DNA of 64,000 bases from a virus, in IMG/VR virus record IMGVR_UViG_3300028800_000002, positions 64,001 through 128,000 of that record; one strand, given 5' to 3'. Shown here piece after piece: positions 16,233 through 64,000 of the stretch. Within the stretch, counting starts at the first letter, position 1. Each line of letters opens with the position of its first letter. Made by a program: the position numbers and the translations under genes. The notes beneath the pieces are model-generated. The model was not told where the DNA came from. It searched no databases and saw nothing but the letters and a program-made list of their open reading frames with translations.

Positions 16233-17684
16233 ATGCACACCACTGGACTGGTTCTAGACTTGTACGACAACCCCAGCGACCTTGGGACCATCTTTCCCTC
16301 GTTGGATGAAGTTCCCGAGACTGTGAAGACCGCCCAAGCCTTGACACCGACCATGCTGGAGTCTTTGCCGGACGATGTATTTGCCCTGGTACTACTGACG
16401 GACGGGGATCGCTTGCGCAAGTATGCCTGTGTGGACGCTGGCAATACTGAATTGAACGTCGCTTACTTCTTCAAGCATGGGCACAAGTTACCCGCTGATG
16501 TTCAGCGCCGAGCCGCGGAGAACTTGAAGATAGCCTGTGCTTGGTACGATGTTGAAGTCCCTGAGGCTCTTGAGAAGGTGGCCCTCGGCGTGAATACGGT
16601 ATTGACCGCTGTGACAGCCCCGTCTCAGATCAAAGGGGCCGTGGGACAGACTGGCAGGAACTTGGCTGCTACTGGGGCGGCCGGTGGACAGGTACTGACT
16701 CCCAAGAACCAGGCATCTCTCGGTCACATGCTCAAGGGAGCTGAAGCTACAGGCACCAGCCTTATGCCAGTGCAGCCGCCCGGCGATTTGGCCCTTGCCA
16801 GCGTTCGGGGCAGACCGGGGACTAGCAACACCAGCGTTATGAAATCCGCCGGTGCTGGTCATCTTGTCGATGGGCATCGAGGTGACGTACCGCCAGAGCT
16901 CGAGACAACTCGTGGGGCCGCCGGCGAGCAGTACGAGAGCGCGCCGCAGACGCCGAAGACCACCATGAAGCCGCACATTGGCATCATGAACAAGGAGCCA
17001 CCAAAGCTCATCAGCGAAAAAGAAGCCTCGCGGTATGCGTACAACGGGGTATTCCCGCTTGATAGCTACGTGCAGGTGAAGGCTGCCTCCATGTACTTCG
17101 ACGCGCAGCATGGCGCCATGGATCCGGGGATGCGTCGAGAGTTTGCTTCCAACTTGGTGCCTCGAGCTATGGAATTGGGCATCGCGTTCAGCAAGGAAGC
17201 CGCCGCTTATGGGTCAAGTACCTTCGCCTCTGTGGAGCAAATTCAAGTAGGGCATGATTTGCGCGTAAACCAGCTCCTGGAAAAGCAGGCTGCTGTGCTC
17301 GACACACTTTACAGTCATCGCGAGGAACTTGGGCCAGAGTTGTTCTGCGACTCACTTGCAGAGTTCGATAAGCTTGCGGAGATAGACCACTTGTACGACC
17401 GGGCCATCTTCGATCCATACATCTCTACGTACGGAGTGCAGAAGCAGGCGGCAGAGAGCGGGAACACTTGGGTCAATGGCAATGACTACGTGACTGAGCG
17501 GCAAATCTCCAATTACTCAGTCACCGCGGGGATTACATTAGCCGATGATTACGGGCCTGACTTCAAGAAAGAGTTCATGAAGGACCCCTGGGGTATCTTC
17601 ATGTCTTTGCCCTTAGAGCAAAAGCGGCGTATGGCTCGATCTGCTACCGACAATAGCGCAACGGGTCTACATGACGTCCAATGA
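16233..17684 (+). CDS. putative head-associated protein with repeated K-x-A motifs
   Basis: GGAG SD; VKTAQ, EKVAL, MKSAG, EKEAS, SKEAA, EKQAA, QKQAA; same operon as portal. Confidence 0.7.
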   Translation: MHTTGLVLDLYDNPSDLGTIFPSLDEVPETVKTAQALTPTMLESLPDDVFALVLLTDGDRLRKYACVDAGNTELNVAYFFKHGHKLPADVQRRAAENLKIACAWYDVEVPEALEKVALGVNTVLTAVTAPSQIKGAVGQTGRNLAATGAAGGQVLTPKNQASLGHMLKGAEATGTSLMPVQPPGDLALASVRGRPGTSNTSVMKSAGAGHLVDGHRGDVPPELETTRGAAGEQYESAPQTPKTTMKPHIGIMNKEPPKLISEKEASRYAYNGVFPLDSYVQVKAASMYFDAQHGAMDPGMRREFASNLVPRAMELGIAFSKEAAAYGSSTFASVEQIQVGHDLRVNQLLEKQAAVLDTLYSHREELGPELFCDSLAEFDKLAEIDHLYDRAIFDPYISTYGVQKQAAESGNTWVNGNDYVTERQISNYSVTAGITLADDYGPDFKKEFMKDPWGIFMSLPLEQKRRMARSATDNSATGLHDVQ

Positions 17685-18465
17685 TGGTATCTATGAGCGT
17701 GTCCTTTCAAAAGTTCGTACTGACAAGCTCGTTGAAGAGGACCCGACTATCGTAGTTGAAACTACGCAGGTGGATGACCGCGTCAATCCTACTGAGCCTG
17801 CGGCAGCGGAGCAGAAGACAAAGTCAGCCGCCGTGACGTTGGACAATCTGTTCAGGAATCCCGAATCCCACCCATTGCTTTTGGACTTAGCCCTTCTGGA
17901 CAAGTATGGGTCCGAGTGGTTGGGGTGGGAGCTTGAGACGTTATTGACTCGCGTGCAGCAGGATTTCCGCACGCCGACCATCGCAGAGATCAACGTGGAG
18001 AAGTTGCACGCGTGCATGACGCTGCACTTGGTCGATACCTTCTGGGAGCGCTGGGAGGTATTTTTGCATTGTTGCTCGGCGTTCAACGGCACCTTTGCCG
18101 ACTTCCACAGCATGCAGATCCCTGAAGTTGCCGAGTGCCTTTTGGCAGTCGACATTGCCAATCGCATTCGAGACGACATGCAATGGAGCGGCGAGGTCAA
18201 GACGTATCTGAAAGCAGTGCATATTTACCGCGGGGAAGTATTCCCGCTGCCCCCTATGGACTTTGTGCAGGTGGATGTGTCGGAGCTCCCAGTGGATGCA
18301 GCTGCCGTGAGGTCGAAGTGGCCACTGGTGAAAGCATCAGGGCGCGCGCCGCGCGGGGAGACTGCCGAGGATGTGCAGCTACGTAAGATGCTTGCTTCTT
18401 GGCAGTACTTGGAGCTTCATCGGCATAGGTTGGAAACTCAACTGCAGGTTCTTCGCCATGTTTGA
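17671..18465 (+). CDS. hypothetical protein (264 aa)
   Basis: Overlaps neighbours at both ends, typical operon packing. Confidence 0.7.
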   Translation: MTSNDGIYERVLSKVRTDKLVEEDPTIVVETTQVDDRVNPTEPAAAEQKTKSAAVTLDNLFRNPESHPLLLDLALLDKYGSEWLGWELETLLTRVQQDFRTPTIAEINVEKLHACMTLHLVDTFWERWEVFLHCCSAFNGTFADFHSMQIPEVAECLLAVDIANRIRDDMQWSGEVKTYLKAVHIYRGEVFPLPPMDFVQVDVSELPVDAAAVRSKWPLVKASGRAPRGETAEDVQLRKMLASWQYLELHRHRLETQLQVLRHV

Positions 18466-19498
18466 GACCACGTTGACTCCTTTTGTGATGCGAGCCTTCG
18501 TTGACCAGCTCAGCAAAGAAGCTTTGGCTGGTAGTGCAATTCAGGCTGGTTTAGGCAGCGGGATGGGCCTTGGATTAGGCGCTGGACTTGCCGTTGGAGG
18601 CGCTCATGGCGCGATCAAAGGTTACCGGGACGCGCGGGCGCAGGGCGCGGGAGTGTTAGGTTCTGCCGGTGCCGCTTTGCAGCATGGTCTTGGCGGTGCT
18701 GTTAGGGGAGGTGCCATTGGTTCATTAGCCGGGGCCGGATTGGGCGCGGTTGCCGGCGGGGTACTCCCTGGCCAGGTCACTTCAGCCACGAAGAGCCTAG
18801 CTACTGCGGGTAATAAGGCTGGGGCTTTCTCTCGTTTTGGTCAAAGGCAAGTGCACAGTCTTACCGGCTGGACCCCAGGAGGAACCACTAAGTCCATCGA
18901 AAGCATTGGTGCAGGGGCTGCAGGTCCGAGAAAAGCCTTGGCGGATGCAAAGCTCAAGGGCGATCCTAAGACCATAGGGCGCGCGCGCTCGGCACTTGCT
19001 GCCACGGAAAAAGCTCAGAATATGGGGCTAACTAGTCTTCCTGGCATTGTGAAATCCGTGGGAGCCAATGGGTTGTTGCCGACGGCTAAGGCAGGAATGC
19101 ATGCTGGGTGGGCCGGCAGCACTCCCAAGATGAAAGCCCTCATGGTGGGGTTGCCAGCGGCGCAAGCCGCGCAGACGCTTCGATCACAAGGAGACCCTAA
19201 TCATCCAGAGAAGGGTAAGGGTGAGCGAGTGGGTCGACTGCTTGGCGGTGCCGTAGGTACGATGGCAGCTCCCATTTCGTTAGCAGGTGGTTTGGCTTTG
19301 AGTACCGCGATGGAGCGCGCCGGAGGAGCTGCTGGGCGCGGAGTAGACAAACTCACCCGAGGCAAGAAAGTCGTTCCTCCACAAGTTCAGCATGAGCCGT
19401 CGAGGCCACCAGCGAGTGAGCCAGGGGACACGGGTCAAGTAGCCACCGAGCGGGTGTTCGGGACAGGTTATAGTGGTGGTTCCGGAGGTATGGAGTAA
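18458..19498 (+). CDS. Gly/Ala-rich glycine-zipper protein, possibly virion/ejected
   Basis: Start taken as ATG 18458 (MFETTLTPFVMRAFVDQLSKEALAG); several GxxxG hydrophobic stretches separated by basic linkers. Confidence 0.65.
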   Translation: MFETTLTPFVMRAFVDQLSKEALAGSAIQAGLGSGMGLGLGAGLAVGGAHGAIKGYRDARAQGAGVLGSAGAALQHGLGGAVRGGAIGSLAGAGLGAVAGGVLPGQVTSATKSLATAGNKAGAFSRFGQRQVHSLTGWTPGGTTKSIESIGAGAAGPRKALADAKLKGDPKTIGRARSALAATEKAQNMGLTSLPGIVKSVGANGLLPTAKAGMHAGWAGSTPKMKALMVGLPAAQAAQTLRSQGDPNHPEKGKGERVGRLLGGAVGTMAAPISLAGGLALSTAMERAGGAAGRGVDKLTRGKKVVPPQVQHEPSRPPASEPGDTGQVATERVFGTGYSGGSGGME

Positions 19499-19501: not shown

Positions 19502-21577
19502 ATGAGCATTCCTGGCGCGATGAGTATGGGCGGCGTTGGCGCCGGAGGCGGGGGTCGTTTCAATGCAACGCGGGGTCGCATCAACAATGGGTTTAGTCAG
19601 GGTGTCAACTACCCAAGCCCATTCTTTGATATCGCTCACACTTACTTGCCGGTCACGGTCAAGGGCATGTTCCGTTGGTGCAGGTATTACTTCCTCACCA
19701 ATCCCATCATCAATGCCGCGGTTTTCAAACTTTCGGAATACCCCATCACTGAGCTGCTTATCGACCATGAGGACAGCAAGGTTGCCAAGAAGTGGAAGGA
19801 ATACTTCGAAGACCACTTGAACTATCGAGCGTATCAGATTGAGTGCGGCCTCGATTACCACACGTATGGCAATTGCCTTTCAAGCTTGAGTTTCCCCTTC
19901 AAGAAGTACCTGACGTGCCCTCAATGTAAGTTCCAGGCGGAAGCCAAGCGGATACGTCCCCATTGGGTGTTCACCAATTTTGAATTCAGGTTGAGTTGCC
20001 CCAAGTGCGGTTACCTGGGTACCGCGAAGTCGAAGGACATCTACTTCAAGAACGAGGCCGGGGTTCGCGTGATGCGATGGAACCCTGAGGATGTTGAGGT
20101 AACCCACTCAGATTTGACTGGTGAGTACACGTACTTTTACAACATCCCGCCAACGATCCGCAACGACGTCATTATCGGCAAGAAGGATGCTGTCGAGAAG
20201 GTGCCTGAGGTGTTCATCCAGGCATTGAGGCAGCAGAAGGGGATTGTATTCAACCAGGATACGTTCTTCCATCTACGGCGCCCCACGCTGGCAGATCAGG
20301 ATCGTGGTTGGGGCCTGCCACTGTTGCTGCCCTGTTTGAAGGACACGTTTTACCTGCAGCTGATGAAGAAGGCACAGGAGTCCATTCTGCTCGAGCACAT
20401 TCTTCCGCTGCGTATCCTGTTTCCGCAGGCGGGTTCTGGGACTTCTGATCCTTACACAAGCATCAATCTTGTCGACTGGCGGGATCACGTAGCTACGGAA
20501 ATTGCCCGTTGGCGCATGGATCCCAATTACATCCCCATCCTGCCGTTGCCCATTGGTAACCAGACTATTGGTGGAGACGGTCGGGCACTTCTTCTCGTGC
20601 AAGAGATGCAAGCACTCAGCGAGCAGCTCATCAATGGCATGCAGGTTCCCCTCGAGTTCATCAAGGGTGGTTTGAGTTACGCTGGCACGAACGTGTCCAT
20701 GCGCATGCTTGAGAACCAGTTTATCGTGTACCTGTCGCGGCATGAGAGGATGGCCAACTGGGTGATGCGGCAAGCGGCTGACTACCTCGATTGGCCGATG
20801 GCGCATATTCGATTCAAGCCGTTCAAGATGGCTGACGACATTCAGCGCAAGGCCTTCTTGTTCCAACTCAATCAAGCGAACAAGATCAGTGACACCACAC
20901 TGTTGGCGGATTCCGACTTGAGCCAGGAGGATGAGGACAACATCATGGAGCGCGAGACTGCCGCGCGCATGAAAGCGACAGAGAAGCAGCAAATGGCCAT
21001 GGCGCAGCTTCAAGGTAAGCAGCAGTCCATCATGATGAAGATGCAAGCCAAGGCTCAGCAAGAAGCCCAGCAAGCTGCTATGGCTCCGAACGCCCCTGGA
21101 GAACCAGGTGGGCCAGAGGCGAATACTGGAGCACCCGGAGGTCAGGGCGGAGTCCCCGCATTGCCATCGGCATCCCCGGATGGTGCCTCACAGGATCCAA
21201 TGCCCGCGGTACAGAGCCCGCTCAGCGCTGGACAGAATATGGGCATGGGTACTAGTGGTCCTGCGGGGCAAGCGATGTTGGGTGGTTCGAGCATCCTGGC
21301 GATGGCACAGACCATCGCGTCCCAATTGTCTCAGCAGGATCCTGCCAGTCAGATGCTTGCGATCAAGCAACTCAAAACACAGTACGGCCCAGAGCTAGCA
21401 GACTTAGTTCTGCAGTACTTGCAGACGATGCCAGGAGCTGCCCCTCAGGGACAACCTGGGCAAGGTGGCCCAGCTGGTATGCAAGCACTGGGGGCTAACG
21501 GTGCAGCTGCGACTCAAGTGGACATGCGGCCACTCCCAGACAAGCTCCCTCCGCGCAGAGCTGCAGCTACGGTTTAG
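19502..21577 (+). CDS. portal protein with zinc-ribbon insertion and Q/G/P-rich tail
   Basis: NPIINAAVFKLSEYP, DYHTYGNC, RWNPEDVEV, FHLRRP...GWGLPLL are portal-like segments; CPQC/CPKC insertion. Confidence 0.75.
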   Translation: MSIPGAMSMGGVGAGGGGRFNATRGRINNGFSQGVNYPSPFFDIAHTYLPVTVKGMFRWCRYYFLTNPIINAAVFKLSEYPITELLIDHEDSKVAKKWKEYFEDHLNYRAYQIECGLDYHTYGNCLSSLSFPFKKYLTCPQCKFQAEAKRIRPHWVFTNFEFRLSCPKCGYLGTAKSKDIYFKNEAGVRVMRWNPEDVEVTHSDLTGEYTYFYNIPPTIRNDVIIGKKDAVEKVPEVFIQALRQQKGIVFNQDTFFHLRRPTLADQDRGWGLPLLLPCLKDTFYLQLMKKAQESILLEHILPLRILFPQAGSGTSDPYTSINLVDWRDHVATEIARWRMDPNYIPILPLPIGNQTIGGDGRALLLVQEMQALSEQLINGMQVPLEFIKGGLSYAGTNVSMRMLENQFIVYLSRHERMANWVMRQAADYLDWPMAHIRFKPFKMADDIQRKAFLFQLNQANKISDTTLLADSDLSQEDEDNIMERETAARMKATEKQQMAMAQLQGKQQSIMMKMQAKAQQEAQQAAMAPNAPGEPGGPEANTGAPGGQGGVPALPSASPDGASQDPMPAVQSPLSAGQNMGMGTSGPAGQAMLGGSSILAMAQTIASQLSQQDPASQMLAIKQLKTQYGPELADLVLQYLQTMPGAAPQGQPGQGGPAGMQALGANGAAATQVDMRPLPDKLPPRRAAATV

Positions 21578-22055: not shown

Positions 22056-23492
22056 TCAGGCAACTTCGGATTGGACCAGATCGTCGAGCTCGATGATTTC
22101 TCCCCACTCAGCAGGCTTTGCTTTGTAGGGTGTTGGCACGATGCACCAAATGAACTGCATGTTCTGTGGGGCTACATCAGGCGCCACACCAGCACCGTCT
22201 GTTAGGTACATCGTCATGTGCGGTCTTGGGAAGAACTCTGTGTCGACAAAGTTGATGGCTTGTCGGAAGTCTGTGCCACCTCTTCCCAATATTTCAATAG
22301 AGCGCAGATCCGCTGGAGTCACCAGGATGGGGGTGCGCTTACCATCCGTATCCGCCTCCATGAACCAGGCATGTTGGATTCCTGTCTGCAGCATAACGTC
22401 AGACATGACCTTGAGCGCGTCCGCGATTTGTCCTCTCCCCATCGATCCAGAGCTGTCTACGATGAAGAATAGAACCGGGTCGTAGCCAATGAGTCCCGGT
22501 AAGGTAATCCCCCTCAAGTAGGAGCGCTTCGAGGGGCGCCGCATGCTGTAGTCAAGTCCACCGCTGCGGATGCGCCCAATGGACAGGCGAGCCATGTTGG
22601 CCAGCTTGCTTCTCCATGGGACATCAAATACGGTTTCACTGACTTCCACCAGTTCAGCCCAACTTCCTGGTAAGGTTCCTCGACCTTGCTGGGATTCCAT
22701 GTGCTGCTTGATGGCCCGCGCTGTCTCTCTGGCTACGTTCTTGCAGTTTGCTTCTGACCGGCCTTTTTCTGCGCTCTGCTCCTTCTCCAGCTCCTTGCCG
22801 ATTGGGTTACCTGCTATGCCACCGCAGCATCCGGATAGAATTCTGGGTGAACCTTTTCCTTCAGCCTCACAGTCAGGGCAGTGGCCGCCCTCGCCGTTTT
22901 CTCCTTCCCCGTCACCCTTTCCGTGCTGGCACTTCGCGGGTTTGCTGCTCGATTTGCTCTTGCTTTCATACTGCTCGAGGAGCTTGTAGTACGCATCAGC
23001 CGTCAACCCTTCTGGGAATCCGTACTGTTCTGGCATGAGCGCCCAGTCCGGGAACTCCCACATGGGTTCAGTGACTATGTTCGATCCGTTCGACGACTTC
23101 TGGCCAGTGACACGCACCTGTTTCGTTTGCGCGCGCATTGAGCTGTTGATGAATAGATCCCCAGCGCGGTTGAATCGTTTGGGATCTTCGTAGCCAGATC
23201 CTCGCCGTACGTGAAGGAGTTGGGCATGCATGCACTCATGCATTAGGCCTGTAGCGACTACAATAGCGCTAGATGCTTCTACCCAAGCTGGGTCGTATAC
23301 GAGCACCAAGTTTGCACTTACTCCCATGGGCCCACCTACGAGCTTCATGAGATTTTCTACTGGCGATGGCACCAACGCGTACAAGGTCGAGCACATGTAG
23401 GGAGCGTATTGCTTCACATATGCTCGACCGATGACGAGAGGCGAGGCTTTTGCTCGCGCGTGCCACCCCTTACCTGAGGGGTTGCCTGCCAT
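22056..23492 (-). CDS. VWA-domain protein with N-terminal HExxH metallopeptidase-like domain (DUF2201 type)
   Basis: LMHECMHAQLLH; MIDAS IVDSSGSM, GRGGTDF, YLTDG. Confidence 0.85.
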   Translation of the reverse strand: MAGNPSGKGWHARAKASPLVIGRAYVKQYAPYMCSTLYALVPSPVENLMKLVGGPMGVSANLVLVYDPAWVEASSAIVVATGLMHECMHAQLLHVRRGSGYEDPKRFNRAGDLFINSSMRAQTKQVRVTGQKSSNGSNIVTEPMWEFPDWALMPEQYGFPEGLTADAYYKLLEQYESKSKSSSKPAKCQHGKGDGEGENGEGGHCPDCEAEGKGSPRILSGCCGGIAGNPIGKELEKEQSAEKGRSEANCKNVARETARAIKQHMESQQGRGTLPGSWAELVEVSETVFDVPWRSKLANMARLSIGRIRSGGLDYSMRRPSKRSYLRGITLPGLIGYDPVLFFIVDSSGSMGRGQIADALKVMSDVMLQTGIQHAWFMEADTDGKRTPILVTPADLRSIEILGRGGTDFRQAINFVDTEFFPRPHMTMYLTDGAGVAPDVAPQNMQFIWCIVPTPYKAKPAEWGEIIELDDLVQSEVA

Positions 23493-23495
23493 TAT

Positions 23496-24749
23496 TTAGG
23501 TCCTTTGCTCCAAGTATTTACCGAGGCCGCTGTCTGCCAATGGCACAAGTACCAGATTGGCTGCTGCCTTGATTGCGGATTTCCCGGAAGCGTGCCCTAG
23601 ACGTTCCTTGATGAGTCCTTCCACCGCTGGAATTACAATGTCAGACAGCTCAGCGTCAAGCAGCTTGGCAATTGCTTTCCATGCCAGTGGGGCAAGGTCC
23701 TCTTGTTCTGCTCGAGTGGGGCGCTGTCTGACGTAGGCTACAGCCCCAGTATAGGCCGCAAGTACAACGTCCAGACGATCTTTGTTGATTTTCCATTTGC
23801 CGTTGAGAACGTCGAGGGGCTTGGGAAGGTCCGCCTCATGGAAGTAGCGAATGAGTTCTTCAGCAGCCCCGGATCCTACGCAGGCTTCAATCATGGCATC
23901 TCGGATTCCATCGCTCTTCTCTAGGATTCTTGCGGTGGTCCATGCCCTAGTGGCAAAGTCCCATGTGCGGTGAGAGGGCCATGCCTTGCCACAGTTCGGG
24001 TCACTCATTGGCGGGCGTTTGTGCAGCAGTGATGGATTGCTCTCGATGAAGCCAGCGAACAGGCTTTGTGCTTCAGGGTAGAGGTTTGGCCACTCATCGA
24101 TGACAGCCTTCTCGATGTCGTCCAGCGAACCTTGCAGGCGCACCGCGGAAGATCCCATAAGCCACGTGGTCCATTCGCGCGCATCTGGCCCTGGGTCTGT
24201 GATGTGGATGAATCGATTCGCTAGCGGTGGTGAAAGACGGAAGCCACAGGCTGCAATTTCCTCTGGATTCATGGCTGCAAGGATGCGCACACGGTGGGGA
24301 ATGTCCAAGTCTCCGGTGTGTCGTTCATGGATCAAGCTCATCAGCGCTCCCTGCGTTGCAGGCATAGCGCCGTTGATTTCATCGAAGAACAGAATTCCTA
24401 CCTTCTCTTTGACCATTCTCCGTATCTGAGGAAGAGGGGCGATATGGGTTGCATCACCTTTCCCGTCAGGGATGAGAGCTCCACCGAAGTCTTCTGGAGG
24501 ATGGGGCGCTGCGTAGATTGTGGACAGGTGGGTTTGCAGGGATGCAGCAATTCCCTTGATGCGTGCCGTCTTGGCGATGCCGGAATCCCCTTCAATGAGC
24601 AGTGGTAATCCCCATTTGCAGTCTGGCTTGCCTGGGTAGCCATCCATCGGCGCGGATACGGAGACTTCAATAATCTCATCGACCTCTGAGCTCTTGAGTG
24701 TGGCTCCAGACAATGCGCTTGCGGGTGCGGTAACTTTCTTAGCGGCCAT
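23496..24749 (-). CDS. MoxR-like AAA+ ATPase
   Basis: Walker A GDSGIAKT, Walker B LFFDEIN, AAMNP, LANRF; immediately upstream of the VWA gene. Confidence 0.85.
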   Translation of the reverse strand: MAAKKVTAPASALSGATLKSSEVDEIIEVSVSAPMDGYPGKPDCKWGLPLLIEGDSGIAKTARIKGIAASLQTHLSTIYAAPHPPEDFGGALIPDGKGDATHIAPLPQIRRMVKEKVGILFFDEINGAMPATQGALMSLIHERHTGDLDIPHRVRILAAMNPEEIAACGFRLSPPLANRFIHITDPGPDAREWTTWLMGSSAVRLQGSLDDIEKAVIDEWPNLYPEAQSLFAGFIESNPSLLHKRPPMSDPNCGKAWPSHRTWDFATRAWTTARILEKSDGIRDAMIEACVGSGAAEELIRYFHEADLPKPLDVLNGKWKINKDRLDVVLAAYTGAVAYVRQRPTRAEQEDLAPLAWKAIAKLLDAELSDIVIPAVEGLIKERLGHASGKSAIKAAANLVLVPLADSGLGKYLEQRT

Positions 24750-39009: not shown

Positions 39010-39043
39010 CGTTTGAGGGCTCTTGGTGGGTGTCGGGGGGAAC

Positions 39044-40855
39044 ATGGCAGCTATTGAGGTCTATCCTGATGAGTATGGTCCCGATGGTACACCGCTTTCC
39101 GATGAGGAGCTACGTCAAATAGAGCTCGGGGGCTGTTGGGCTCCGGAGGCTGAGCAGTACGTTGACCACTTTGAGGATGAGTTTGATCCCCATGTAGCAA
39201 ACGATGCGCCACCTATGATTCTGCCCTCGGCATTTACGGAATACGCCTTCCGGATGCCGACCCCTGATGGGTTCGAGAACTTCTCGTTTGAAGGTCGGCG
39301 GCATCTTCGGCAGGTGTACGACACTCCGATTCGGCGCATCCTCTTGATGTGTGGCCGCCAGGTGGAGAAGTCCACACTGCTTGGCAACCGGTCATTGAGC
39401 TACTGCTGCCTCATCCCGTCTTACAAGGTGCTTTACGTGAGCCCGTCTGCCACGCAGACCAAGACGTTTTCCAACGACCGTATCAAGGAGCCCATCGAGA
39501 CTAGCCCAGTGTTGCGCGCATTCACGACGCACATGCTGTCTCAGAACATCTTTGAGAAGCAGTTCATCAATCGCTCGAAGATTACATTGCGCAATGCCTT
39601 CTTGAATGCTGACCGTGCCCGCGGCGTCCCCGCGCACATGTTGGACATCGACGAGATTCAGAACATTCTCGCCGACAACATTCCCGTCATTGAGCAGTGC
39701 CTCTCACATTCACCGGAGAACATGAAGCGTTATGTTTACTCCGGAACGCCACTGACGCTGGACAACGTCATTGAGGACTACTGGTCTAATCGTTCCACGC
39801 AGAACCAGTGGGTTGTGCCATGTGATTGCCTAGTGGGGGAGGCGGGTCGTTACTGGAACATCCTTGGTGAGAAGAACATCGGGCTGCACAATCTGATCTG
39901 TGAGCGTTGCGGCAAGCAGATATTCCCAATGTGCACTGATGCCCAGTGGGCATGCTCGGTTGACTACGACCCAGTCCACACACCGTTCGAAGGATTTCGT
40001 ATCCCTCAGTTGATGGTGCCATGGCTCGATTGGGATGAGCTTCTTTACAACTTTGAGCATTACGGTCGAAACAAGTTCTACAACGAAGTACTCGGTATCT
40101 CGTACGACACGGGGCTTCGCCCGTTGACCAGCGCGCAGATTAGAGCCTGCTGCAACGAGAATGTCTTCATGGCAGACGCCCCCAAGTACCAGGGCTTGGG
40201 CTTTGGTCAGGAGATCTTTGCCGGCATCGACTGGGGCACAGGAGAGCATAGCTACACGGTGCTCACGTTGGGGACGTACATCGGAAACAAGTTTAGGATT
40301 TTCTACATCCACAGGTTTGTTGGCGAGGACACAGAGCCTGAGCGCCAGCTGCAGAAGATCGAAGAGGTCTGCCGAGCGTACAACGTGCGCGTTATCGGAG
40401 CCGACTACGGAGGTGGACATTACCCCAATGACTTCCTGGTTCGGCGCTTCGGTAGAGAGCGCGTGATGCGGTATCAGTACGCTGCCCGTTTATCCGCCAA
40501 GGTTAGGTGGGAGCCAAAGCTACAGCGCTGGATTGCGCACCGCACTGAGGTCATGAGTGCGATCTTCAACTCAATCAAGCGTGCCACCGTATTTGAGTTT
40601 CCCCGTTGGAAGGAATTCAAATCCCCCTATGGTCAGGACTGCTTGAACATCTTCAGCGAATACAACGAGAAGATTCGTATGATTCAGTACGGGCACACCG
40701 CCGGCAAGACCGATGACGCCTTCCACTCGATCTTGTATTGCTTCCTTGCCTCTATGGTGACGAAGCCGCGTCCCGATGTAATTGCCCCAGGTAAGGAAGC
40801 TGACGCGATAGGCTCTGTGTGGTCTTCTTACAGCGGCCCAACAAATCAAGGTTGA
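39044..40855 (+). CDS. terL: terminase large subunit
   Basis: Walker A GRQVEKST, Walker B LDIDEIQ, coupling motif YSGTP, nuclease AGIDWG and DDAFHS; CDC/CERC zinc insertion; start ATG 39044. Confidence 0.9.
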   Translation: MAAIEVYPDEYGPDGTPLSDEELRQIELGGCWAPEAEQYVDHFEDEFDPHVANDAPPMILPSAFTEYAFRMPTPDGFENFSFEGRRHLRQVYDTPIRRILLMCGRQVEKSTLLGNRSLSYCCLIPSYKVLYVSPSATQTKTFSNDRIKEPIETSPVLRAFTTHMLSQNIFEKQFINRSKITLRNAFLNADRARGVPAHMLDIDEIQNILADNIPVIEQCLSHSPENMKRYVYSGTPLTLDNVIEDYWSNRSTQNQWVVPCDCLVGEAGRYWNILGEKNIGLHNLICERCGKQIFPMCTDAQWACSVDYDPVHTPFEGFRIPQLMVPWLDWDELLYNFEHYGRNKFYNEVLGISYDTGLRPLTSAQIRACCNENVFMADAPKYQGLGFGQEIFAGIDWGTGEHSYTVLTLGTYIGNKFRIFYIHRFVGEDTEPERQLQKIEEVCRAYNVRVIGADYGGGHYPNDFLVRRFGRERVMRYQYAARLSAKVRWEPKLQRWIAHRTEVMSAIFNSIKRATVFEFPRWKEFKSPYGQDCLNIFSEYNEKIRMIQYGHTAGKTDDAFHSILYCFLASMVTKPRPDVIAPGKEADAIGSVWSSYSGPTNQG

Positions 40856-40885: not shown

Positions 40886-41596
40886 CTAGGCGGGTTCAAC
40901 TTCCCGCGGGTACAGATTTGAGATGACTGCGTCGGTGACTTCACTCTTGATGAAGATCTTGTTGGCCACCTTGTACCCATGCCTACCGAGAACGTAGAGA
41001 TAAGCCACGTTGCGCAGGTTCCTTCGTGCAGCATCGAGGCAGGCAAATGCAAAGTCCAGGTTGGCGTCAGTGGCTCGGGCCCGGTGCAGCATGATCTCAT
41101 TGGCTAGTTGCAGGAAGTACTCCCACGGGCTTTCATCAAGCGTGTGGCGCGCGAGCAAATCGAGGTAGGCCTCATCGATTGCGTTGATGACCGCTGCCCA
41201 TTCCATGATGGATCCTGTGCGCCAATCTTCAGGTGGTACACGTAGTTCTTCGCGCACGCGGGCATATAGGTCAAAGATGTCGTCTTCCCCAGTTCCAAGC
41301 TTGTAGTTTTGGATTCCCAAGAAGTGACAGATTTGATCTAGCTTGCTGCTGACGGTGCGGCTAAGTGCCTGCGCTTGGACTGCAAGCATAGCGACCGATG
41401 GCATGTCGAGCTTTTGCTCGCGCACATCGGCCAGCGCGTGCACTTCTTCCACCCGGTACCTGGGCTCGTTGTGCGAGTCACCCGGCGTAAGCGGGTAGAT
41501 GAATCCCCTTCGAACCAACCGGCGCAATTGCCGGCACGAAACGCTCAGGATTTCTGAGGCTTCGGTGTGGCTGATGCTGTTGTCTGGACTTCCCAT
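40886..41596 (-). CDS. HTH (MerR/excisionase-like) DNA-binding protein
   Basis: ISHTEASEILSVSCRQLRRLVRRGFI...PRYRVEEV; start taken as ATG 41596. Confidence 0.65.
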   Translation of the reverse strand: MGSPDNSISHTEASEILSVSCRQLRRLVRRGFIYPLTPGDSHNEPRYRVEEVHALADVREQKLDMPSVAMLAVQAQALSRTVSSKLDQICHFLGIQNYKLGTGEDDIFDLYARVREELRVPPEDWRTGSIMEWAAVINAIDEAYLDLLARHTLDESPWEYFLQLANEIMLHRARATDANLDFAFACLDAARRNLRNVAYLYVLGRHGYKVANKIFIKSEVTDAVISNLYPREVEPA

Positions 41597-41629
41597 GGGC
41601 CGATTCAACGTGCTACTTCTATGGAACGA

Positions 41630-41637
41630 TGTATTGT
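41630..41637 (+). promoter_or_regulatory. putative -10 promoter (TGTATTGT)
   Basis: Hexamer ends 6 nt before GGAG (41644) upstream of ATG 41661. Confidence 0.4.
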
Positions 41638-41660
41638 TGCAACGGAGAAAGGCCAACGCC

Positions 41661-42923
41661 ATGAATGACGCCCCCATGCAGACAATTCTTCAGCAACGGG
41701 ATGCTCGACCCGTTTCCGGGGAGCACTTGGAGGTTCTCGGCAAAGCTGCTGCGACAAGCTGGACCCTTGGTAAGCATGCCTCGCTGAATGACGCCATTGT
41801 GGACACCATTCGCGGGGAGCGCCTTTCCCCCGAGCAGGTCCGGCGCGTGGTGGAGTTCACCAACGGTGACGCTTACCTGCGTGAATTCCGTAAGGAAGGC
41901 GCTGTGCATCGGGTTGTGAACTTTGACTGCGGTCCCGCATCGCCATCTCAGGTGCTTCAGGATTTGAACGATGGAGGCGGGGGCACCATCTCAGATCGAG
42001 GAACATTGGACTACGCGATGACCCCATCTATGGCCAAGCGCGCATCCGCGGATCGTGACACAACCCCCTTGGAGAAGACAGCCAGCGTTGAGCCCGCGCA
42101 GAAGGAGGCTTCTCGTTACGAGGACCATCTGTGGGAGATGTTGGGCGGTAATCCCAAGGGATCGATGCCTTTTGCAGAACCTTTGCGCCCTCTTGAAGAC
42201 CTGAGGCACAAACTGGCGGGGGCGCGCGATGCGACAGCGTCAGAGCTCGATGGTCTTGAAGTGGACTATGCCGACGTGTGCGACCGGCTGCATGGCCACG
42301 TGAAGCAGGCGTCTCTCGATGGAACTTCCCTTGGAGATATCGTGCGGGCCTGGGCCACTGTGGAATCTGATCCGGTGTACGTGAAGGTAGCGTTCAGTAT
42401 GCTGACTCCCCGCTTTCAGCGTGAGCAGCTATTCCCCTCGTTGGATGCCATCGGAGCTTCGCTCGAGAAGCGCGCCATGCGCGGCGAGGTGAATCCTCAG
42501 CATGATTTGGTCACGACATATGCCGAGTTTGTCGATGTTTTGAACAAGCTGGCCTCCATGCGTGTGGCGCACGACGAGCTCTCCGCCGGCGCGGACACTA
42601 CGGAGTCCTTGCTGAAACAAGGGGGAGGTGTCCTTGGGGCAGCAAAAAAAGGCCTTTCGATGGCCAGCCACGGCATTGATGCCGCGTCAAAACCACTCGC
42701 CCACATCCTTGTGGGCCCGCGTGATGCCAAGAAACTAGCTCCGGTGTTGGCCACGGGAGGCAAAGCGGTTGGCCTGCTTGGCGCAGGACTTGCCGGGAAT
42801 GCAGCAGTGCAGAGTGTCACAGATCGCCCTGCTGTGCAGAACACGACACGGGCGATCAAGTCTGTGGTGCCAGGCACCGCCGAGTATCAAAACCGTCGAT
42901 ATCGTAATATGACAGGGCAGTAA
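41661..42923 (+). CDS. putative head/core protein with K-x-A motifs and C-terminal glycine zipper
   Basis: Start ATG 41661; KRAS, EKTAS, KEAS, KQAS, EKRAM, KLAS; GKAVGLLGAGLAGNAAV. Confidence 0.7.
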   Translation: MNDAPMQTILQQRDARPVSGEHLEVLGKAAATSWTLGKHASLNDAIVDTIRGERLSPEQVRRVVEFTNGDAYLREFRKEGAVHRVVNFDCGPASPSQVLQDLNDGGGGTISDRGTLDYAMTPSMAKRASADRDTTPLEKTASVEPAQKEASRYEDHLWEMLGGNPKGSMPFAEPLRPLEDLRHKLAGARDATASELDGLEVDYADVCDRLHGHVKQASLDGTSLGDIVRAWATVESDPVYVKVAFSMLTPRFQREQLFPSLDAIGASLEKRAMRGEVNPQHDLVTTYAEFVDVLNKLASMRVAHDELSAGADTTESLLKQGGGVLGAAKKGLSMASHGIDAASKPLAHILVGPRDAKKLAPVLATGGKAVGLLGAGLAGNAAVQSVTDRPAVQNTTRAIKSVVPGTAEYQNRRYRNMTGQ

Positions 42924-43525: not shown

Positions 43526-45274
43526 GTGATCAAGGTCAGCTTATTCCAAGGCAGCGAGGAGTATGGTCCTGCGGCGGTTCCACTGTTTGGAGCCGCCGAT
43601 TCATATTTCGAGAAGACTGCCTCCGCCACCTTGCTTCCTGAGGTCTCCAACTACATTGCGCAGTTGAGGCCGCGCAACGACTCCCAGTACGTGTTGGTCA
43701 ACGCCATGGGCGCCGGTGAGTACTACGGATCGAACATCAATGGAGACCGTTTCGCTGAGGCAGCCCTAATACATTCGCCGGACAACTGGAAGGGTGTGCC
43801 AGTCTTCGACAAAGCCATAGCTGCTCGCTGGGCGTATGGATTTCCTACGTTCTACCGTGCGCACGTGTTCCCTCATCATAGAAACAAGGACGCCGGCAAA
43901 GCCCTTGGCTTCGTGGAGCTGGCAGCGTGGAACAACCACATGAAGCGAGTCGAGCTCGTCACACGGCTCGATCAAGCGTTGTGCAGAAATTTCGGAGGGG
44001 ACAGTATTTGGGACAAGCTCAAGGCAGGGGATTTCCCCGATGTGAGCATGGGTACTAAGGTTCCATTTGACACTTGCTCAATCACGTTGGACCGTGAGTT
44101 GTACCAGCGCGCGTGGGACACTTACAACCCCAGGCGCCACAAGAGCCCTGGTGAGGCCATCCTAGAGTTCCACAAGAAGCTCAAGGAAAAGAACGGCATT
44201 GGCATTCGTGGCCTGAGCATCACGCGTAACGACTACTCAGATTACGCGCGCACACGGATGAATCACATCCTCCCCGACGGGCGCAAAGTCTGGGTGGACA
44301 ACGACTTTCCAGCGTTCTTCGACATCAGCTTCGTGTTCATTGGCGCGGACAAGATCGCCAAGGCGATGTTGAAGATTGCCGATGGTGGTCGTGTTTACAG
44401 CATTGGCTCCGCTGAGCTGGCAGAGAAACTTGGTGCAGTGGCTACGGAGGACATGCTTGAGAAGACTGCTCGTTTGCTCACGCGGTCTGATTTGGGTCTG
44501 CCCCCTCGCGAGAAAGAGGCGATGACCAAAGAGGTTGTGCCAAACCAACTCGCGGGTAAAGCCGTCCCGTTGTTGACCGCGCAGGAGCATGATCTTCCAG
44601 ATGAGGTGCTGCAGATGCTGGGCGCTGCCGGGCTGGATAAGGCCCTGACCACATCTGCCGGGCTTGGCATGGTGCTGCGTCCCCGCGAGTTCCAGCGGGT
44701 GACCCTCATCAGCATGGGGCAGTCAGATTTGGCGGAGCAGCTTGCCTCCATGGACCAACTGTTTCCCAAAGTTGAGGAAAAGTCCGATGTACCGATGGAC
44801 TCGGCTTCTTTTAGCCCCGTTTTGTCGCAGTTGTTGGCCCCTTTGATGGCGGACCGCTCGGCGTTTGGTCCGTTGATTGAGCACCGCGTGGTAATACTTG
44901 TAGGCGCCCCCGCCAAAAGTTCAAAGCCAAGTGCTTCCCATTCCTCGGAACTACTACGTAAGATTGGGGCAGCCTACAACGGTTATCGAGACAGCCTTAT
45001 GCAGTTTGTACCACAAGCGCAGGACTTGATTGAGTCAACAGCACCGCGTAGCGATGTCGTACTCCGCAAGATCGCTAGTGTGTCTGCTGCCGAACTCTTT
45101 ACCCCTTTGTCCTTCCGTTACATGTCGCAGGCGTTCCTCGATGAACTCCCTGTTGGAACTTCAGGACAAGGAGTGGTAAAGCAATCAAGCGACCAGGCTA
45201 TGGCCAGCGTGCAGAGGGCACTCCCCTTGGTGACCACGCGACTAAGTACACCACCAGTTACCACAGGAGTTTGA
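43526..45274 (+). CDS. prohead maturation protease (HK97/herpes-like serine protease fold)
   Basis: His strand VFPHHRNKD...ALG, catalytic Ser DVSMG, terminal strand FDISFVFIGAD..A equivalent to the EvSlV..pAn..A motif; upstream of scaffold and capsid. Confidence 0.75.
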   Translation: MIKVSLFQGSEEYGPAAVPLFGAADSYFEKTASATLLPEVSNYIAQLRPRNDSQYVLVNAMGAGEYYGSNINGDRFAEAALIHSPDNWKGVPVFDKAIAARWAYGFPTFYRAHVFPHHRNKDAGKALGFVELAAWNNHMKRVELVTRLDQALCRNFGGDSIWDKLKAGDFPDVSMGTKVPFDTCSITLDRELYQRAWDTYNPRRHKSPGEAILEFHKKLKEKNGIGIRGLSITRNDYSDYARTRMNHILPDGRKVWVDNDFPAFFDISFVFIGADKIAKAMLKIADGGRVYSIGSAELAEKLGAVATEDMLEKTARLLTRSDLGLPPREKEAMTKEVVPNQLAGKAVPLLTAQEHDLPDEVLQMLGAAGLDKALTTSAGLGMVLRPREFQRVTLISMGQSDLAEQLASMDQLFPKVEEKSDVPMDSASFSPVLSQLLAPLMADRSAFGPLIEHRVVILVGAPAKSSKPSASHSSELLRKIGAAYNGYRDSLMQFVPQAQDLIESTAPRSDVVLRKIASVSAAELFTPLSFRYMSQAFLDELPVGTSGQGVVKQSSDQAMASVQRALPLVTTRLSTPPVTTGV

Positions 45275-46113: not shown

Positions 46114-47727
46114 ATGTGCGCATGGGAGTACAAACCGCAGTTCAGGAAGACCGCAGACGCGGTCTCCGTGCCTATCGCCGATTCGACGGTAGGTGCAGCT
46201 GCGACTGCTCCCTTGCCGGAGTTGGCAGTGGGGAACAAGCCCGCGCCCGGTCTAACCGGTCCCAAAGGCTTGGCCCCACGCACCAACTACTCTCGCGTCA
46301 ATTCCGGATCACCACCGCCCGCGGATTTGGGCTCCACTTCTCAGAAGGGGCTGCCGACAGATCCGCAAGGATTTTTGCCACCTAAGGTTGCGCACTACGA
46401 GGTTCCTATGACCGCGATGACCCAACGATATACGATTCAGGACATGATCAAGGCAGCCGCCGCAGGCGCCTCGAGTCAGGTCTCAGTTGCCCTCGAAGGC
46501 ACGAGACAACTCGCCAACTCTGGCGAGAAAGTTGCTTCAGCTACTGCACTAACCCCCAATGGGGAAGAGTCCATTTCGACAGCCTACGTTGAGAAGCTGG
46601 CGGCAGCAGTTGATTACATCATTGAGCTCAGCAAGGAAGCTGAAGAGCCTGGACCCGGTACGGGCCCTAATCCCCTTCAGGTTCTCGAAGCCAAAGCTTC
46701 CAACAATGAGATCGAGGCAGGGCACACGGGAGAGGCAACTCCTGCCCATTTGATTCCTAAGAATCCTGGGTTGCAACGACCCAGCGGAAATGCGCAGGGG
46801 CCGGCGAATGCCCTTGATGACAATGCGTCGTCAATGCTCCCGGCATACCCTGTCAAGCTTAGTTCAGCGGATATTGAATGCCTGCGTAAAGCAGCGGCGG
46901 GAAATCCAGAAGGCCATCACATTCGTCGTGAGATTCTAGGAAACCCCATTTCTTCTGCCATCGAGGCTAAGAAGGGTAAGAAACTGGAGTCTGCAGGCAA
47001 AGCTTGGTGGCACGGGGCTAAGGAAGGTCTCAAAGGCCTTGGCGCTGGTGCAGCTGCAGGAGGCGCCATTGGTGCTGGTGTTGGGGCATTGAAGGGTGGA
47101 CGCGCCGGTGCTGCTCAGGGAGCTGTACACGGTTCGGTGCGGGGCGCGCAGATCGGTGGAGCCGTTGGTGCACTAAAAGGCCGGCACGATACCGAGGCAA
47201 GTCGCATCCATGGGGAGCACAGCAAGCACAAGGAAGCTTCGGCTTCTGACGGTCGCTTGGTAGACTACTTCCTGTCCATGACGAAAGCCGCGGAAGATGC
47301 CATCAACCCAGCAAAGATTTCAGCGGGCGCAGCAGTGCCCCCTGAGACCTCGGCATCGGGTGAATCAGGTGGTGCTCCTGTCGGTGGTCAACCGCAAGGA
47401 CCTGTTGGTTTGATTGGCTCAAATGACGCAGCCATCAACTTTCAGAAGCGTGAAGCTAAAGCGCCGGTGAAAACACAAATGGCTAGGATTCTTACTGAGC
47501 CAGCGCTTTCCGCCGCACATGATCACACACTCGACCAAGCCTTTGACAACACGGGCAAGGCCGGCGTGAAGATTTCATCGTCAGTTCGAGCTCTGTCAGC
47601 TCGAGCCGTCCTCGAGAAGATGGCTGAAGAGGCTTGCGCAACAACACCACCTAAGAAGAAGGTGGGCGCGGGCATGGGGAACTTTCAAGCACCTCCAGTC
47701 GGCGGCGTAGCCGGCGCTGCGTCGTAA
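46114..47727 (+). CDS. putative internal head protein (Pro/Gly/Ala-rich, K-x-A motifs, glycine zipper)
   Basis: RKTAD, PKVAH, EKVAS, EKLAA, KEAS, EKMAE; GLGAGAAAGGAIGAGVGALKGG. Confidence 0.65.
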   Translation: MCAWEYKPQFRKTADAVSVPIADSTVGAAATAPLPELAVGNKPAPGLTGPKGLAPRTNYSRVNSGSPPPADLGSTSQKGLPTDPQGFLPPKVAHYEVPMTAMTQRYTIQDMIKAAAAGASSQVSVALEGTRQLANSGEKVASATALTPNGEESISTAYVEKLAAAVDYIIELSKEAEEPGPGTGPNPLQVLEAKASNNEIEAGHTGEATPAHLIPKNPGLQRPSGNAQGPANALDDNASSMLPAYPVKLSSADIECLRKAAAGNPEGHHIRREILGNPISSAIEAKKGKKLESAGKAWWHGAKEGLKGLGAGAAAGGAIGAGVGALKGGRAGAAQGAVHGSVRGAQIGGAVGALKGRHDTEASRIHGEHSKHKEASASDGRLVDYFLSMTKAAEDAINPAKISAGAAVPPETSASGESGGAPVGGQPQGPVGLIGSNDAAINFQKREAKAPVKTQMARILTEPALSAAHDHTLDQAFDNTGKAGVKISSSVRALSARAVLEKMAEEACATTPPKKKVGAGMGNFQAPPVGGVAGAAS

Positions 47728-48706: not shown

Positions 48707-49822
48707 ATGTCGGTTTCGGCGAGCGTTCTAAACGAGCTTTTTGCTTCAAAACTCAGCACGAGTGAAGGCAAAGAGAAGATTGCCGAATACGGTGGTTCTT
48801 ACATTCGTGACCGCCTTCGTGAGGTGAGCTTTGCTCGCAAAGTTATCCCGCCGGAGCAGGTTACGCGTGCGGACTGCCAACGTTCGGTAAACCACGACAC
48901 CTTGGTCAAGGTTGTGGACATTGAGCCACAATCGCGCGCCATGGCGATTACATTCCGAGGGCAACCCAATGCTCGCTTCATTCGAGGCGACAGGGCTGAG
49001 ATTGCCTTCTTCACCATCAGCTCTGAGATGTTCCAGAAGACGGAACAGGAGCTCTTGGCTTACGAGATGCCCATCACCAAGGTCATCGAAGAGAACTCGG
49101 TGAAGGACATCCAGGAGATTGAGGATCGTGAATTCACGATCCACATCGAGGCTGCGGTTCAAGCGCTGCAGACTGAGGCCAATGGTGGGACGTCAGTGCC
49201 CCTCCATGTAGGCACCATCGGGTCAACGGTTGAGTTCTCCGTGCGCAAGGGCGAGCTTGCTCGTAATGCGTCCGGGAACACGGCAGAGGTTCTGCCGGTT
49301 CAGCGCCCCGACCTCATCAACCTCTTCAAGATGCTGGACGGCAACCGACTGCGTGCTGAGCGCATGCTCATGACCGAGGTCGATTGGGATGACATTCTGC
49401 AATGGACGGTGGAAGACTTCGGTGACCGCGTTCAGTCTGAGACTACGGTCGATGGCTACAAGTACAATACCCTCCTGGGGCATTCGTACATTCGTACCAT
49501 CAAGACCGACATTCTCCGGCCGGGCAACGTCTACATCTTCACCAAGCCCGAGTTCTTTGGCAAGTTTTACGTGTTGAACAACACGAAGTTCTACATCGAT
49601 AAGATTGCCAACACGATCACGTTCCAGGCCTGGGAAGATATCGGTATGTCGGTGCTCAACATTGCCGCAGTTCGAAAGCTCGAATTGTACTCGGGTGATG
49701 CGACGCTGGGCGATGCAGACGGTCTGCTCACCAACTTCATTCCGAAGGCGGAAGACGCTTTGGGCGCGGTCAACAACCGCGTTTCCGAAGGGCTCAAATT
49801 CCCGCAGGTTTCTCAGTTCTAA
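48707..49822 (+). CDS. major capsid protein (HK97 fold)
   Basis: AAGGAG SD; 371 aa; follows protease, scaffold and decoration genes; followed by a strong terminator; alternating helix/strand pattern consistent with the HK97 fold. Confidence 0.8.
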   Translation: MSVSASVLNELFASKLSTSEGKEKIAEYGGSYIRDRLREVSFARKVIPPEQVTRADCQRSVNHDTLVKVVDIEPQSRAMAITFRGQPNARFIRGDRAEIAFFTISSEMFQKTEQELLAYEMPITKVIEENSVKDIQEIEDREFTIHIEAAVQALQTEANGGTSVPLHVGTIGSTVEFSVRKGELARNASGNTAEVLPVQRPDLINLFKMLDGNRLRAERMLMTEVDWDDILQWTVEDFGDRVQSETTVDGYKYNTLLGHSYIRTIKTDILRPGNVYIFTKPEFFGKFYVLNNTKFYIDKIANTITFQAWEDIGMSVLNIAAVRKLELYSGDATLGDADGLLTNFIPKAEDALGAVNNRVSEGLKFPQVSQF

Positions 49823-61733: not shown

Positions 61734-61744
61734 ACTTTTTACCG

Positions 61745-61753: not shown

Positions 61754-61773
61754 GAGAGAAGGAGCAAAACACA

Positions 61774-62921: not shown

Positions 62922-62930
62922 AGTGGGGCT

Positions 62931-63617: not shown

Positions 63618-63653
63618 GTTGTCTTTCTGGGCACAAGGAAGGTAGACTGAACC

Positions 63654-64000
63654 ATGATGAATCGAGCCATAGCGGCAGCATTCGGTACCGACAAGTTAGC
63701 TGCTGAGGGCGGATGGAAGCCCATGAAGGGCGGCCTCCCATTGGCTGCTGCGGTTGGCGGTGCTTTGATTCTTCATGGAATGCACCGAGGCTCTAAGGTG
63801 GATTCTGCCCAGCAGAATGCCAGACAGGAGGCCAATCGAGCCTTTGAATCTAACCGTTTTGCTGGCACGGATGCCGCGTTACGCGGTGGAGTTCCATTGA
63901 CTCCTACAGGTTCCTCCATCTACGCCAACGAGCGTGCGGACAGCAACCAAGCAGGGGATTTCTCGCTGTTTGATAAGGGCGCATCCGCCGCTGGTATAGA
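63654..64000 (+). CDS. K-x-A protein, partial (runs off the window end)
   Basis: Manual translation MMNRAIAAAFGTDKLAAEGGWKPMKGGLPLAAAVGGALILHG...; AAGGAAGG SD. Confidence 0.6.
   Translation, partial: MMNRAIAAAFGTDKLAAEGGWKPMKGGLPLAAAVGGALILHGMHRGSKVDSAQQNARQEANRAFESNRFAGTDAALRGGVPLTPTGSSIYANERADSNQAGDFSLFDKGASAAGI

Follow-up and report, generated by a model that had tools for sequence, protein, structure and literature searches.

What marks the proteins that are to be cut during head maturation in a large phage when almost none of its head proteins belongs to a recognizable family? In T4 and the phiKZ-like phages motif-coded proteolysis is the means by which head cores are built and then emptied, and it was through knowledge of the cleavage motifs that the head proteomes of these phages could be decoded. 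The question is raised here by a stretch of 64,000 nucleotides (hereafter the window), bases 64001–128000 of the single-contig, 186,443-bp uncultured virus record IMGVR_UViG_3300028800_000002, whose virion proteins carry a recurrent Lys-x-Ala (K-x-A) tripeptide. The original prediction, made from the letters of the window, regarded this motif as the cleavage code of a prohead protease specified by open reading frame (ORF) 43526 and named 15 carriers. ORFs are designated by the position of their first base in the window; they come from a simple ORF set (245 genome-wide), and expected motif counts are derived from 300–500 shuffles of each individual protein.

From ORF 16233 onward there are 141 copies of K-x-A where shuffling predicts 83.3 (z 7.0), and 65 of the longer form K-x-A-[SAG] where it predicts 23.7 (z 8.7); the earlier count of about 70 motif copies was right. 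The sites which had been quoted are also all present, namely K30-T-A-S in the protease, the K24-I-A-E and internal DKIAN of the major capsid protein (both in ORF 48707), and the DVSMG sequence of the protease. The 20 ORFs that precede 16233 (positions 1–16232) have K-x-A at expectation (24 vs 25.9), the RNA polymerase of ORF 26281, where the motif had been called sparse, shows no excess (7 vs 11.3 expected), and across the whole genome the entire excess can be traced to the virion block of the window. When some 1,200 patterns of the types XY, X.Y and X..Y were scanned without bias in ORFs 16233–63617, K-x-A ranked first (138 vs 79.8, z 7.6) with K..S and EK co-enriched, and the control patterns A-x-K, KA, AK, K-xx-A and R-x-A were all at expectation. 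The motif also favours N-termini: it lies within residues 5–42 in 16 of the 34 virion-block ORFs (6.0 expected), as compared with 35 of the 211 in the rest of the genome (29.2 expected). Since the enrichment persists against per-protein shuffled controls it survives correction for composition, and we regard it as confirmed.

The excess sits in about eight proteins, the products of ORFs 16233, 34629, 41661, 43526, 45279, 46114, 47737 and 52213. Pooled, these contain 43 copies of K-x-A-[SA] where 5.9 would be expected (z 16). They are not enriched for the T4-type motif [LI]-x-E (33 vs 26.7, z 1.3); the phiKZ-type motif [SAG]-x-E (70 vs 71.1) and the herpes-type motif [VLI]-x-A are at expectation in the same proteins, and [VLI]-x-A-S is not enriched. 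Because the codons for the motif Lys, Ala and Ser are those of the background, and Ser is specified by both TCN and AGY, the signal or selection is in the peptide and not in a DNA word; a motif at the DNA level is thereby ruled out.

Conservation was assessed in 80 related loci with 10-kb flanks, in which the protease is 42–79% identical to that of the window and orthologues were assigned by BLASTP. The mean ratio of observed to expected K-x-A-[SAG] over orthologues was 9.3x for ORF 41661 (n=68), 7.8x for 47737 (n=33), 7.7x for 34629 (n=47), 4.8x for 45279 (n=42), 4.1x for 43526 and 2.7x for 46114; it was 0.4x for both the terminase and the capsid protein, and about 1x for the remaining families. 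At 37 K-x-A-[SAG] sites in the six enriched families Lys is identical in 0.66 and Ala in 0.65 of the orthologues, whereas the flanks score 0.25–0.43 and non-motif Lys and Ala 0.48 and 0.42. The motif is thus kept while its surroundings are not, which is the behaviour that the original prediction had looked for. The key sites are located in hypervariable, indel-rich linkers. The logo of 2,316 pooled sites reads [L/F/M]-[E/V]-K-[T/L/V]-A-[S/A]-A, with a 3.7x enrichment of Thr between Lys and Ala (P2) and 4.2x of Ser after Ala (P1'); K-x-A copies in the control families are without this context.

Two cultured relatives, Salmonella phage Arash (137764–156897) and Vibrio phage D69 (146676–163305), both of about 180–187 kb, carry the pattern too, at a distance of about 28–33% protease identity for the two together (28% for Arash). 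Arash is enriched in gp220 (10 vs 3.0), gp223 (8 vs 3.1) and gp225 (7 vs 1.8), and D69 in 0268 and 0273; in D69 0271 ten of the ten K-x-A copies are K-x-A-[SA] (0.9 expected). The protease homologs possess K30-Q-A-A and K386-R-A-S in Arash gp222 and K27-S-A-A and K385-R-A-S in D69 0270. Most of the head-module genes of Arash and D69 bear no annotation beyond “structural” or “hypothetical,” and the record annotation of gp222 does not name a protease.

The assignment of ORF 43526 as a protease is based upon its predicted fold. An AlphaFold2 (AF2) model of residues 1–300, built from 53 sequences (52–89% identity), has a predicted local distance difference test score (pLDDT) of 81.6 and a predicted template modelling score (pTM) of 0.77. 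Exhaustive structural comparison with VIA-align placed T4 gp21 first (5jbl; Z 8.6, root-mean-square deviation [rmsd] 2.8, 133/165 residues) and varicella-zoster virus (VZV) protease second (Z 8.6, rmsd 3.4, 119 amino acids); the protease of human cytomegalovirus (HCMV) and that of KSHV, the herpesvirus associated with Kaposi's sarcoma, are lower in the list, and the best unrelated fold scored Z 6.1. Foldseek ranks 1–7 are gp21 and herpesvirus proteases, all at E 0.05–0.2, and the herpes simplex virus (HSV) and pseudorabies virus (PrV) enzymes are among the structural matches. At full length the model is of low quality (pLDDT 60) and its matches to gp21 are weak (Z 4.5), and the N-domain was therefore refolded alone. 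Among labelled language-model neighbours the Peptidase_S77 and S80 clusters stand at 0.90–0.91. No Pfam match, be it to PF03420 [Peptidase_S77], PF20034 [Peptidase_S80] or another family, was found at E up to 5 in 30 family members, nor did 43526 have a PHROG match or a sequence or profile match in the PDB. Because membership of the Pfam S77 and S80 profiles is lacking, 43526 is filed by fold class and likely working mode, not as a member of either family.

Candidate catalytic residues can be named. None of the 53 sequences departs from H118, and H117 is kept in at least 90% of them; the putative nucleophile S174 is invariant together with M175 and G176; His118 and Ser174 are 56 residues apart. 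Many homologs are 900–1,700 amino acids long and carry one to three insertions, often of more than 150 residues, and several of the long ones contain intein/LAGLIDADG Pfam domains. The large insertions cluster at residues ~68, 111–117 and 175–184, positions that coincide with the conserved His and Ser motifs, with 23 counted at residues 175–181 and 12 at 183–184. Inteins are typically located in the active sites of essential proteins. We conclude with moderate confidence that 43526 specifies an assemblin-fold, capsid-maturation serine protease. This part of the original prediction is supported by the fold match and the invariant Ser174 of DVSMG. The accompanying label “HK97-fold protease” is not supported: the predicted fold is of the T4 gp21/herpesvirus assemblin type, and HK97 fold is the name of a capsid-protein fold. 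As to HK97-type proteases (S78/U35), no Pfam S78 match was obtained and no such chain appears in the structure lists, although absence from these lists is not exclusion.

Gene order was used as a further test, and gene 43526 sits in the head module beside scaffold-like and capsid genes. The module runs terminase (39023), 41661, 42926, 43526, scaffold-like 45279, 46114, 47737, 48125 and capsid (48707), with equivalent orders in Arash gp220–226 and D69 0268–0275; the arrangement shared by all three is a motif-rich protein, a small protein, the protease, a scaffold-like protein, small proteins and the capsid protein. The protease is widespread, with more than 1,296 homologs in a 90%-clustered collection, many of them on contigs of 185–200 kb, while a profile search with its N-domain, on proteins clustered at 50% identity, retrieved 2,760 clusters, of which 2,274 scored E<=1e-10.

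Three K-x-A sites in 43526 itself are nearly universal (Table 1). The protein appears to consist of a protease domain (residues ~33–300), a linker (~262–345), a helical part (~346–540) and a conserved C-terminal tail (518–582), and in the full-length model the stretch 262–345 is disordered (pLDDT<50). The K30 site, with a flank identity of 0.47, precedes the first residue that aligns with gp21 (residue 44), and K-x-A occurs just upstream of the protease domain in 66 of the 68 representatives of 50% clusters with a complete N-terminus, 8.8 being expected. The K313 site falls inside the disordered linker; the residue that follows it is Arg here and Ser or Ala in most relatives. At the third site Lys is at least 90% conserved in the tail alignment and is followed by a conserved peptide, L-F-T-P-L-S..Y-L..A-F.D-E. 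The three sites are located at boundaries between these parts, an arrangement that would suit the layout of herpesvirus pUL26 (protease, release site, scaffold, maturation site, capsid-binding tail). By this analogy only, the C-terminal half may be a scaffold and the tail may bind the capsid protein; a predicted complex between 48707 and the tail scored 0.00, and is given no weight either way.

Table 1. Features of the window and candidate cleavage sites (motif counts are observed vs expected; occupancy and flank identity refer to orthologues; aa, amino acids)
Feature	Position	Strand	Remarks
ORF 16233, motif-rich protein, 483 aa	16233–17684	+	Three genes upstream of portal gene; K-x-A 13 vs 2.8
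Portal	19502–21577	+	tblastn: Arash portal 6e-80, Bacillus phage G portal 1e-15
HNH endonuclease and ATPase	22056–24749	-	phrog_1314 (1e-44) and phrog_1297 (2e-41)
ORF 26281, single-chain (fused) RNA polymerase, 2,139 aa	26281–32700	+	
ORF 34629, motif-rich protein, 719 aa	34629–36788	+	Two genes upstream of terminase; K-x-A 16 vs 3.3
Large terminase	39023–40855	+	phrog_675 (3e-54); Pfam GpA_ATPase
ORF 41661, motif-rich head-module protein, 420 aa	41661–42923	+	K-x-A 11 vs 2.5; K-x-A-[SAG] 8 vs 0.7
K-T-A-S site in 41661	42075		Occupancy 0.86, flank identity 0.13
ORF 43526, candidate prohead protease with helical scaffold-like C-terminal half, 582 aa	43526–45274	+	Predicted fold
K30-T-A32, then Ser33; candidate N-terminal propeptide site	43613–43621	+	Occupancy 0.96 (79 orthologues)
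His117-His118, candidate catalytic	43874–43879	+	
D-V-S-M-G, candidate nucleophile S174	44039–44053	+	
K313-T-A315; candidate site for release of protease from C-terminal half	44462–44470	+	Occupancy 0.94, flank identity 0.09
K515-I-A517, then Ser518; candidate maturation site	45068–45076	+	Occupancy 0.82, flank identity 0.17
ORF 45279, scaffold-like Lys/Ala/Glu-rich protein, 267 aa	45279–46082	+	K-x-A 12 vs 5.9
ORF 46114, 537 aa	46114–47727	+	Between scaffold-like and capsid genes; K-x-A 11 vs 6.2
K139-V-A-S site in 46114	46528–46536		Occupancy 0.88, flank identity 0.22
ORF 47737, small motif-rich head-module protein, 119 aa	47737–48096	+	K-x-A 4 vs 0.9
ORF 48707, major capsid protein, 371 aa	48707–49822	+	phrog_2522 major head protein (1.1e-13); Arash gp226 (5e-37)
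K24-I-A26 in 48707, doubtful site	48776–48784		
ORF 52213, Gln/Ala-rich coiled-coil protein, 363 aa	52213–53304	+	3 vs 0.6
ORF 53686, 798 aa	53686–56082	+	K-x-A 12 vs 10.3

To our knowledge all of the characterized proteases of the gp21/assemblin clan read a P3-x-P1 code. Since the motif consists of two fixed residues two apart, followed by Ser or Ala, we would assign Lys to P3, Ala to P1 and Ser/Ala to P1' by comparison with these codes. On the combined weight of motif statistics, predicted fold and analogy, we put at about 0.7 the probability that the 43526 protease recognizes K-x-A and cleaves there, with the cut after Ala. Inside the assembled prohead the enzyme would then cleave at Lys-x-Ala followed by Ser or Ala, releasing its own protease domain at K30-T-A and K313-T-A and splitting its helical, scaffold-like half from the conserved tail at K515-I-A. 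The scaffold-like protein 45279 would be degraded to pieces of about 11–62 residues, 41661, 46114, 47737, 34629 and 16233 would be chopped, and 52213 would lose a multi-site N-terminal leader; the portal and terminase would presumably not be substrates.

The proposed enzyme can be compared with three known systems. The L/I-x-E sites of T4 lie in the scaffold protein gp22, in core proteins and in the leaders of internal proteins, and herpesvirus proteases read V/L/I-x-A followed by Ser. T4 gp21 (MEROPS S77) resembles 43526 in being its best structural match, in having an adjoining scaffold-like gene and self-sites, and in a three-residue P3-x-P1 motif repeated in scaffold and core proteins and in N-terminal leaders. 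Unlike gp21, 43526 shows no detectable sequence similarity to that enzyme and no Pfam S77 match, would have Ala rather than Glu at P1 and Lys rather than Leu/Ile at P3, and is a 582-residue protein with a fused helical C-terminal half; [LI]-x-E is, as noted, not enriched. The T4 code is L/I-x-E and that of SPN3US is A-x-E, for which Ser is favoured at P1' (PMC10052503), and the motif of the phiKZ/SPN3US type has already been used to predict substrates (PMC10052503). The enzymes phiKZ gp175 and SPN3US gp245 (S80; cleavage after (S/A/G)-x-E) also serve large myoviruses in which numerous head proteins are processed, share the preference for Ser at P1', and belong to a family that figures among the language-model neighbours of 43526; they differ in having Glu and not Ala at P1 and in lacking any sequence relation, and [SAG]-x-E stays at expectation here. 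PhiKZ has in addition split RNA polymerase subunits, whereas beta and beta' are fused in the present clade. Herpesvirus pUL26 is of the fold class predicted for 43526, and its order of protease, site, scaffold, site and C-terminal tail would be matched here. Its R and M sites, Ala followed by Ser/Thr, flank the parts of a protease-scaffold-tail polyprotein (PMC4498786), and the Ala-then-Ser/Thr feature is again found here; Val/Leu/Ile at P3 there would be replaced by Lys, and 43526 has an extra N-terminal site.

Cleavage itself, the choice of bond and the role of 43526 as the enzyme are all inferences, and several points weigh against the proposal. The orthologues are not independent samples. 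The protease assignment comes from a predicted structure with middling scores (Z 8.6, Foldseek E 0.05–0.2) and no sequence-family match. Some conserved K-x-A copies lie in well-conserved segments, for example K-[VA]-A-F in 41661 and G-A-D-K-[TI]-A-K in 43526; segments of this kind are probably folded and cleavage within them is improbable, and some copies would accordingly not be sites. Finally, the paper on the Arash virion proteome and its supplements give coverage percentages only, with no peptide-level data.

Such copies also lend something to the foremost alternative, in which the motif is bound and not cut, as a capsid-targeting or scaffold-to-shell docking peptide, or its Lys is modified or cross-linked. 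Enrichment and conservation statistics of the present kind would suit any selected short linear motif, the Lys is invariant, some sites are in probably structured segments, and the cross-links of the HK97 capsid use Lys. A docking peptide or modified Lys does not, however, account readily for sites at all three domain boundaries of an assemblin-fold protease, for as many as 16 copies in one protein, set in indel-rich spacers, or for the small residues favoured after Ala in a P3-x-P1 format typical of the characterized proteases of the clan, and we consider it unlikely.

Somewhat less likely still is that K-x-A does mark proteolysis, with the cut made at another bond, after Lys or a preceding Glu, or by another enzyme, either a host protease or a second phage protease. 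Sequence alone cannot locate the bond, and Glu is enriched 3x just before Lys, which is of note as T4-type enzymes cut after Glu. Yet this Glu is found at only 22% of the pooled sites, it is Lys and Ala which define the motif, their i/i+2 spacing is that of P3 and P1 in the clan, and the Glu motifs of T4 and phiKZ type are not enriched. The module moreover encodes a dedicated protease with self-sites of its own, and a second protease was not identified, no systematic search for one having been made. An artefact of Lys- and Ala-rich helices, by chance or inherited helical periodicity, is very improbable and is rejected by the shuffle and control-pattern tests: although 45279 contains 11% Lys and 21% Ala and copies do occur in Ala-rich helices (e.g., K-R-A-A-A-T-K-V-A-E-A), the shuffles correct composition protein by protein, Lys is not abundant in the strongest carriers (3.7% in 34629), an enrichment of about fourfold is seen for Thr at P2 and for Ser at P1', and the motif residues are better conserved than their flanks.

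Returning to K-x-A as a cleavage motif, the list of 15 carriers in the original prediction has to be shortened. The signal is strong in 16233, 34629, 41661, 45279 and 47737 and moderate in 43526, 46114, 52213, 61470 and 63654; in 18458, 42926, 53277, 56981 and, taken as a whole, 53686 it is at chance level. Orthologues of 16233 with 35–45% identity remain enriched (e.g., 16 vs 4.2 and 12 vs 3.3 at 35–40%). In 34629, for which no counterpart was found in cultured phages, K-x-A-[SAG] occurs 12 times against 0.9 (z about 12), with several sites above 0.9 occupancy across orthologues. The product of 41661 is a weak homolog of Arash gp220. The longest ORF for this protein begins at 41499 and overlaps a 263-residue ORF on the minus strand (40886–41677); because of the alignment with relatives the true start is probably the ATG at 41661, the first 54 codons of the longer ORF being untranslated.

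Seven of the 12 K-x-A copies in the scaffold-like protein 45279 are K-x-A-[SA] (1.7 expected), and its K235 site has an occupancy of 0.98 with a flank identity of 0.37; the counterparts Arash gp223 (6 vs 1.0) and D69_0271 (10 vs 0.9) are similarly enriched. Three sites in 47737 show occupancies of 0.88–1.00 across orthologues. The length of the 46114 protein differs widely among close relatives (463–626 residues). It gave no usable Atlas match (pLDDT of the Atlas model 0.39), sequence and profile searches of the PDB returned nothing meaningful, and no fold is indicated by its sequence or by the Atlas model. The notion that 46114 is the capsid protein is wrong; this role belongs to 48707 by its matches to phrog_2522 and Arash gp226.

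The three K-x-A-[SA] sites of 52213 (K16, K39 and K55) all lie within the first ~58 residues, and they persist in seven orthologues, in which the spacers differ through long insertions that carry extra K-x-A copies; this suggests that the N-terminus is a multi-site propeptide. ORF 53686 has K-T-A-S-type sites at K184 and K364 and no overall excess. It is conserved in relatives only over its N-terminal ~200 residues, the proteins of the relatives being shorter (215–608 residues), and its description as a “polyprotein” is not supported by enrichment alone. The portal protein served as a negative control, with K-x-A at 4 vs 3.3 and no K-x-A-[SAG], and the large terminase, with its orthologue ratio of 0.4x, as another.

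It had also been proposed that the motif lies where propeptides are expected. This fits the candidate site K30-T-A32 of the protease, given its occupancy. The second example, K24-I-A26 of the capsid protein, is not specifically supported. Although K24-[I/M/L/V]-A is conserved, so uniformly is the entire N-arm; the position after Ala is occupied by Glu, Gln or Ala, the Ala itself gives way to Asn in one relative, and in Arash and D69 a K-E-A-G is found two residues off in the alignment. The protein as a whole is not enriched (2 vs 1.4), and cleavage at this ambiguous site is doubtful.

As regards the setting of these genes, the head module has no near-identical DNA match among cultured phages, and Pfam and PHROG searches of the head proteins gave matches only for the terminase and capsid protein 48707. 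The minus-strand HNH endonuclease and ATPase separate the portal block from the RNA polymerase gene, in a region whose other genes are on the plus strand. The C-terminal 620 residues of the RNA polymerase match Arash gp216 (8e-47) and D69 0264; gp216 is “subunit beta” in the record annotation and beta' in the Arash paper, which reports RNA polymerase subunits among the virion proteins.

Motif-coded head maturation is well known; the new element lies in the proposed specificity and in how widely it extends through a huge, almost wholly uncultured clade, two members of which are in culture. We found no Lys-x-Ala or Ala-then-Ser rule for a phage prohead protease in the literature, subscription journals being mostly outside the search. 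If K-x-A is, as seems most likely, the cleavage signal, the rule differs from the “cut after glutamate” rule of the phages studied to date. We lean, if only slightly, towards the view that in a very large group of almost wholly uncultured phages of ~180–200 kb the heads are matured by a fused protease-scaffold protein of assemblin fold, specific for Lys-x-Ala followed by Ser. If true, this would be a third specificity in the gp21/assemblin clan (Ala at P1, Lys at P3), herpesvirus-like at P1/P1' and unlike that of the characterized phage enzymes, and an Ala-Ser bond shared with the herpesvirus proteases would bear on the evolution of specificity in the lineage of tailed phages and herpesviruses. 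The rule is directly testable, as the cultured phages Arash and D69 carry the pattern. If the view is correct, sequence alone would suffice to predict from the motif which internal head proteins are processed and what their propeptides are and, if validated, the K-x-A-then-S rule would reveal the processed scaffold, core and cargo proteins, together with their mature ends, in thousands of uncultured large phages.

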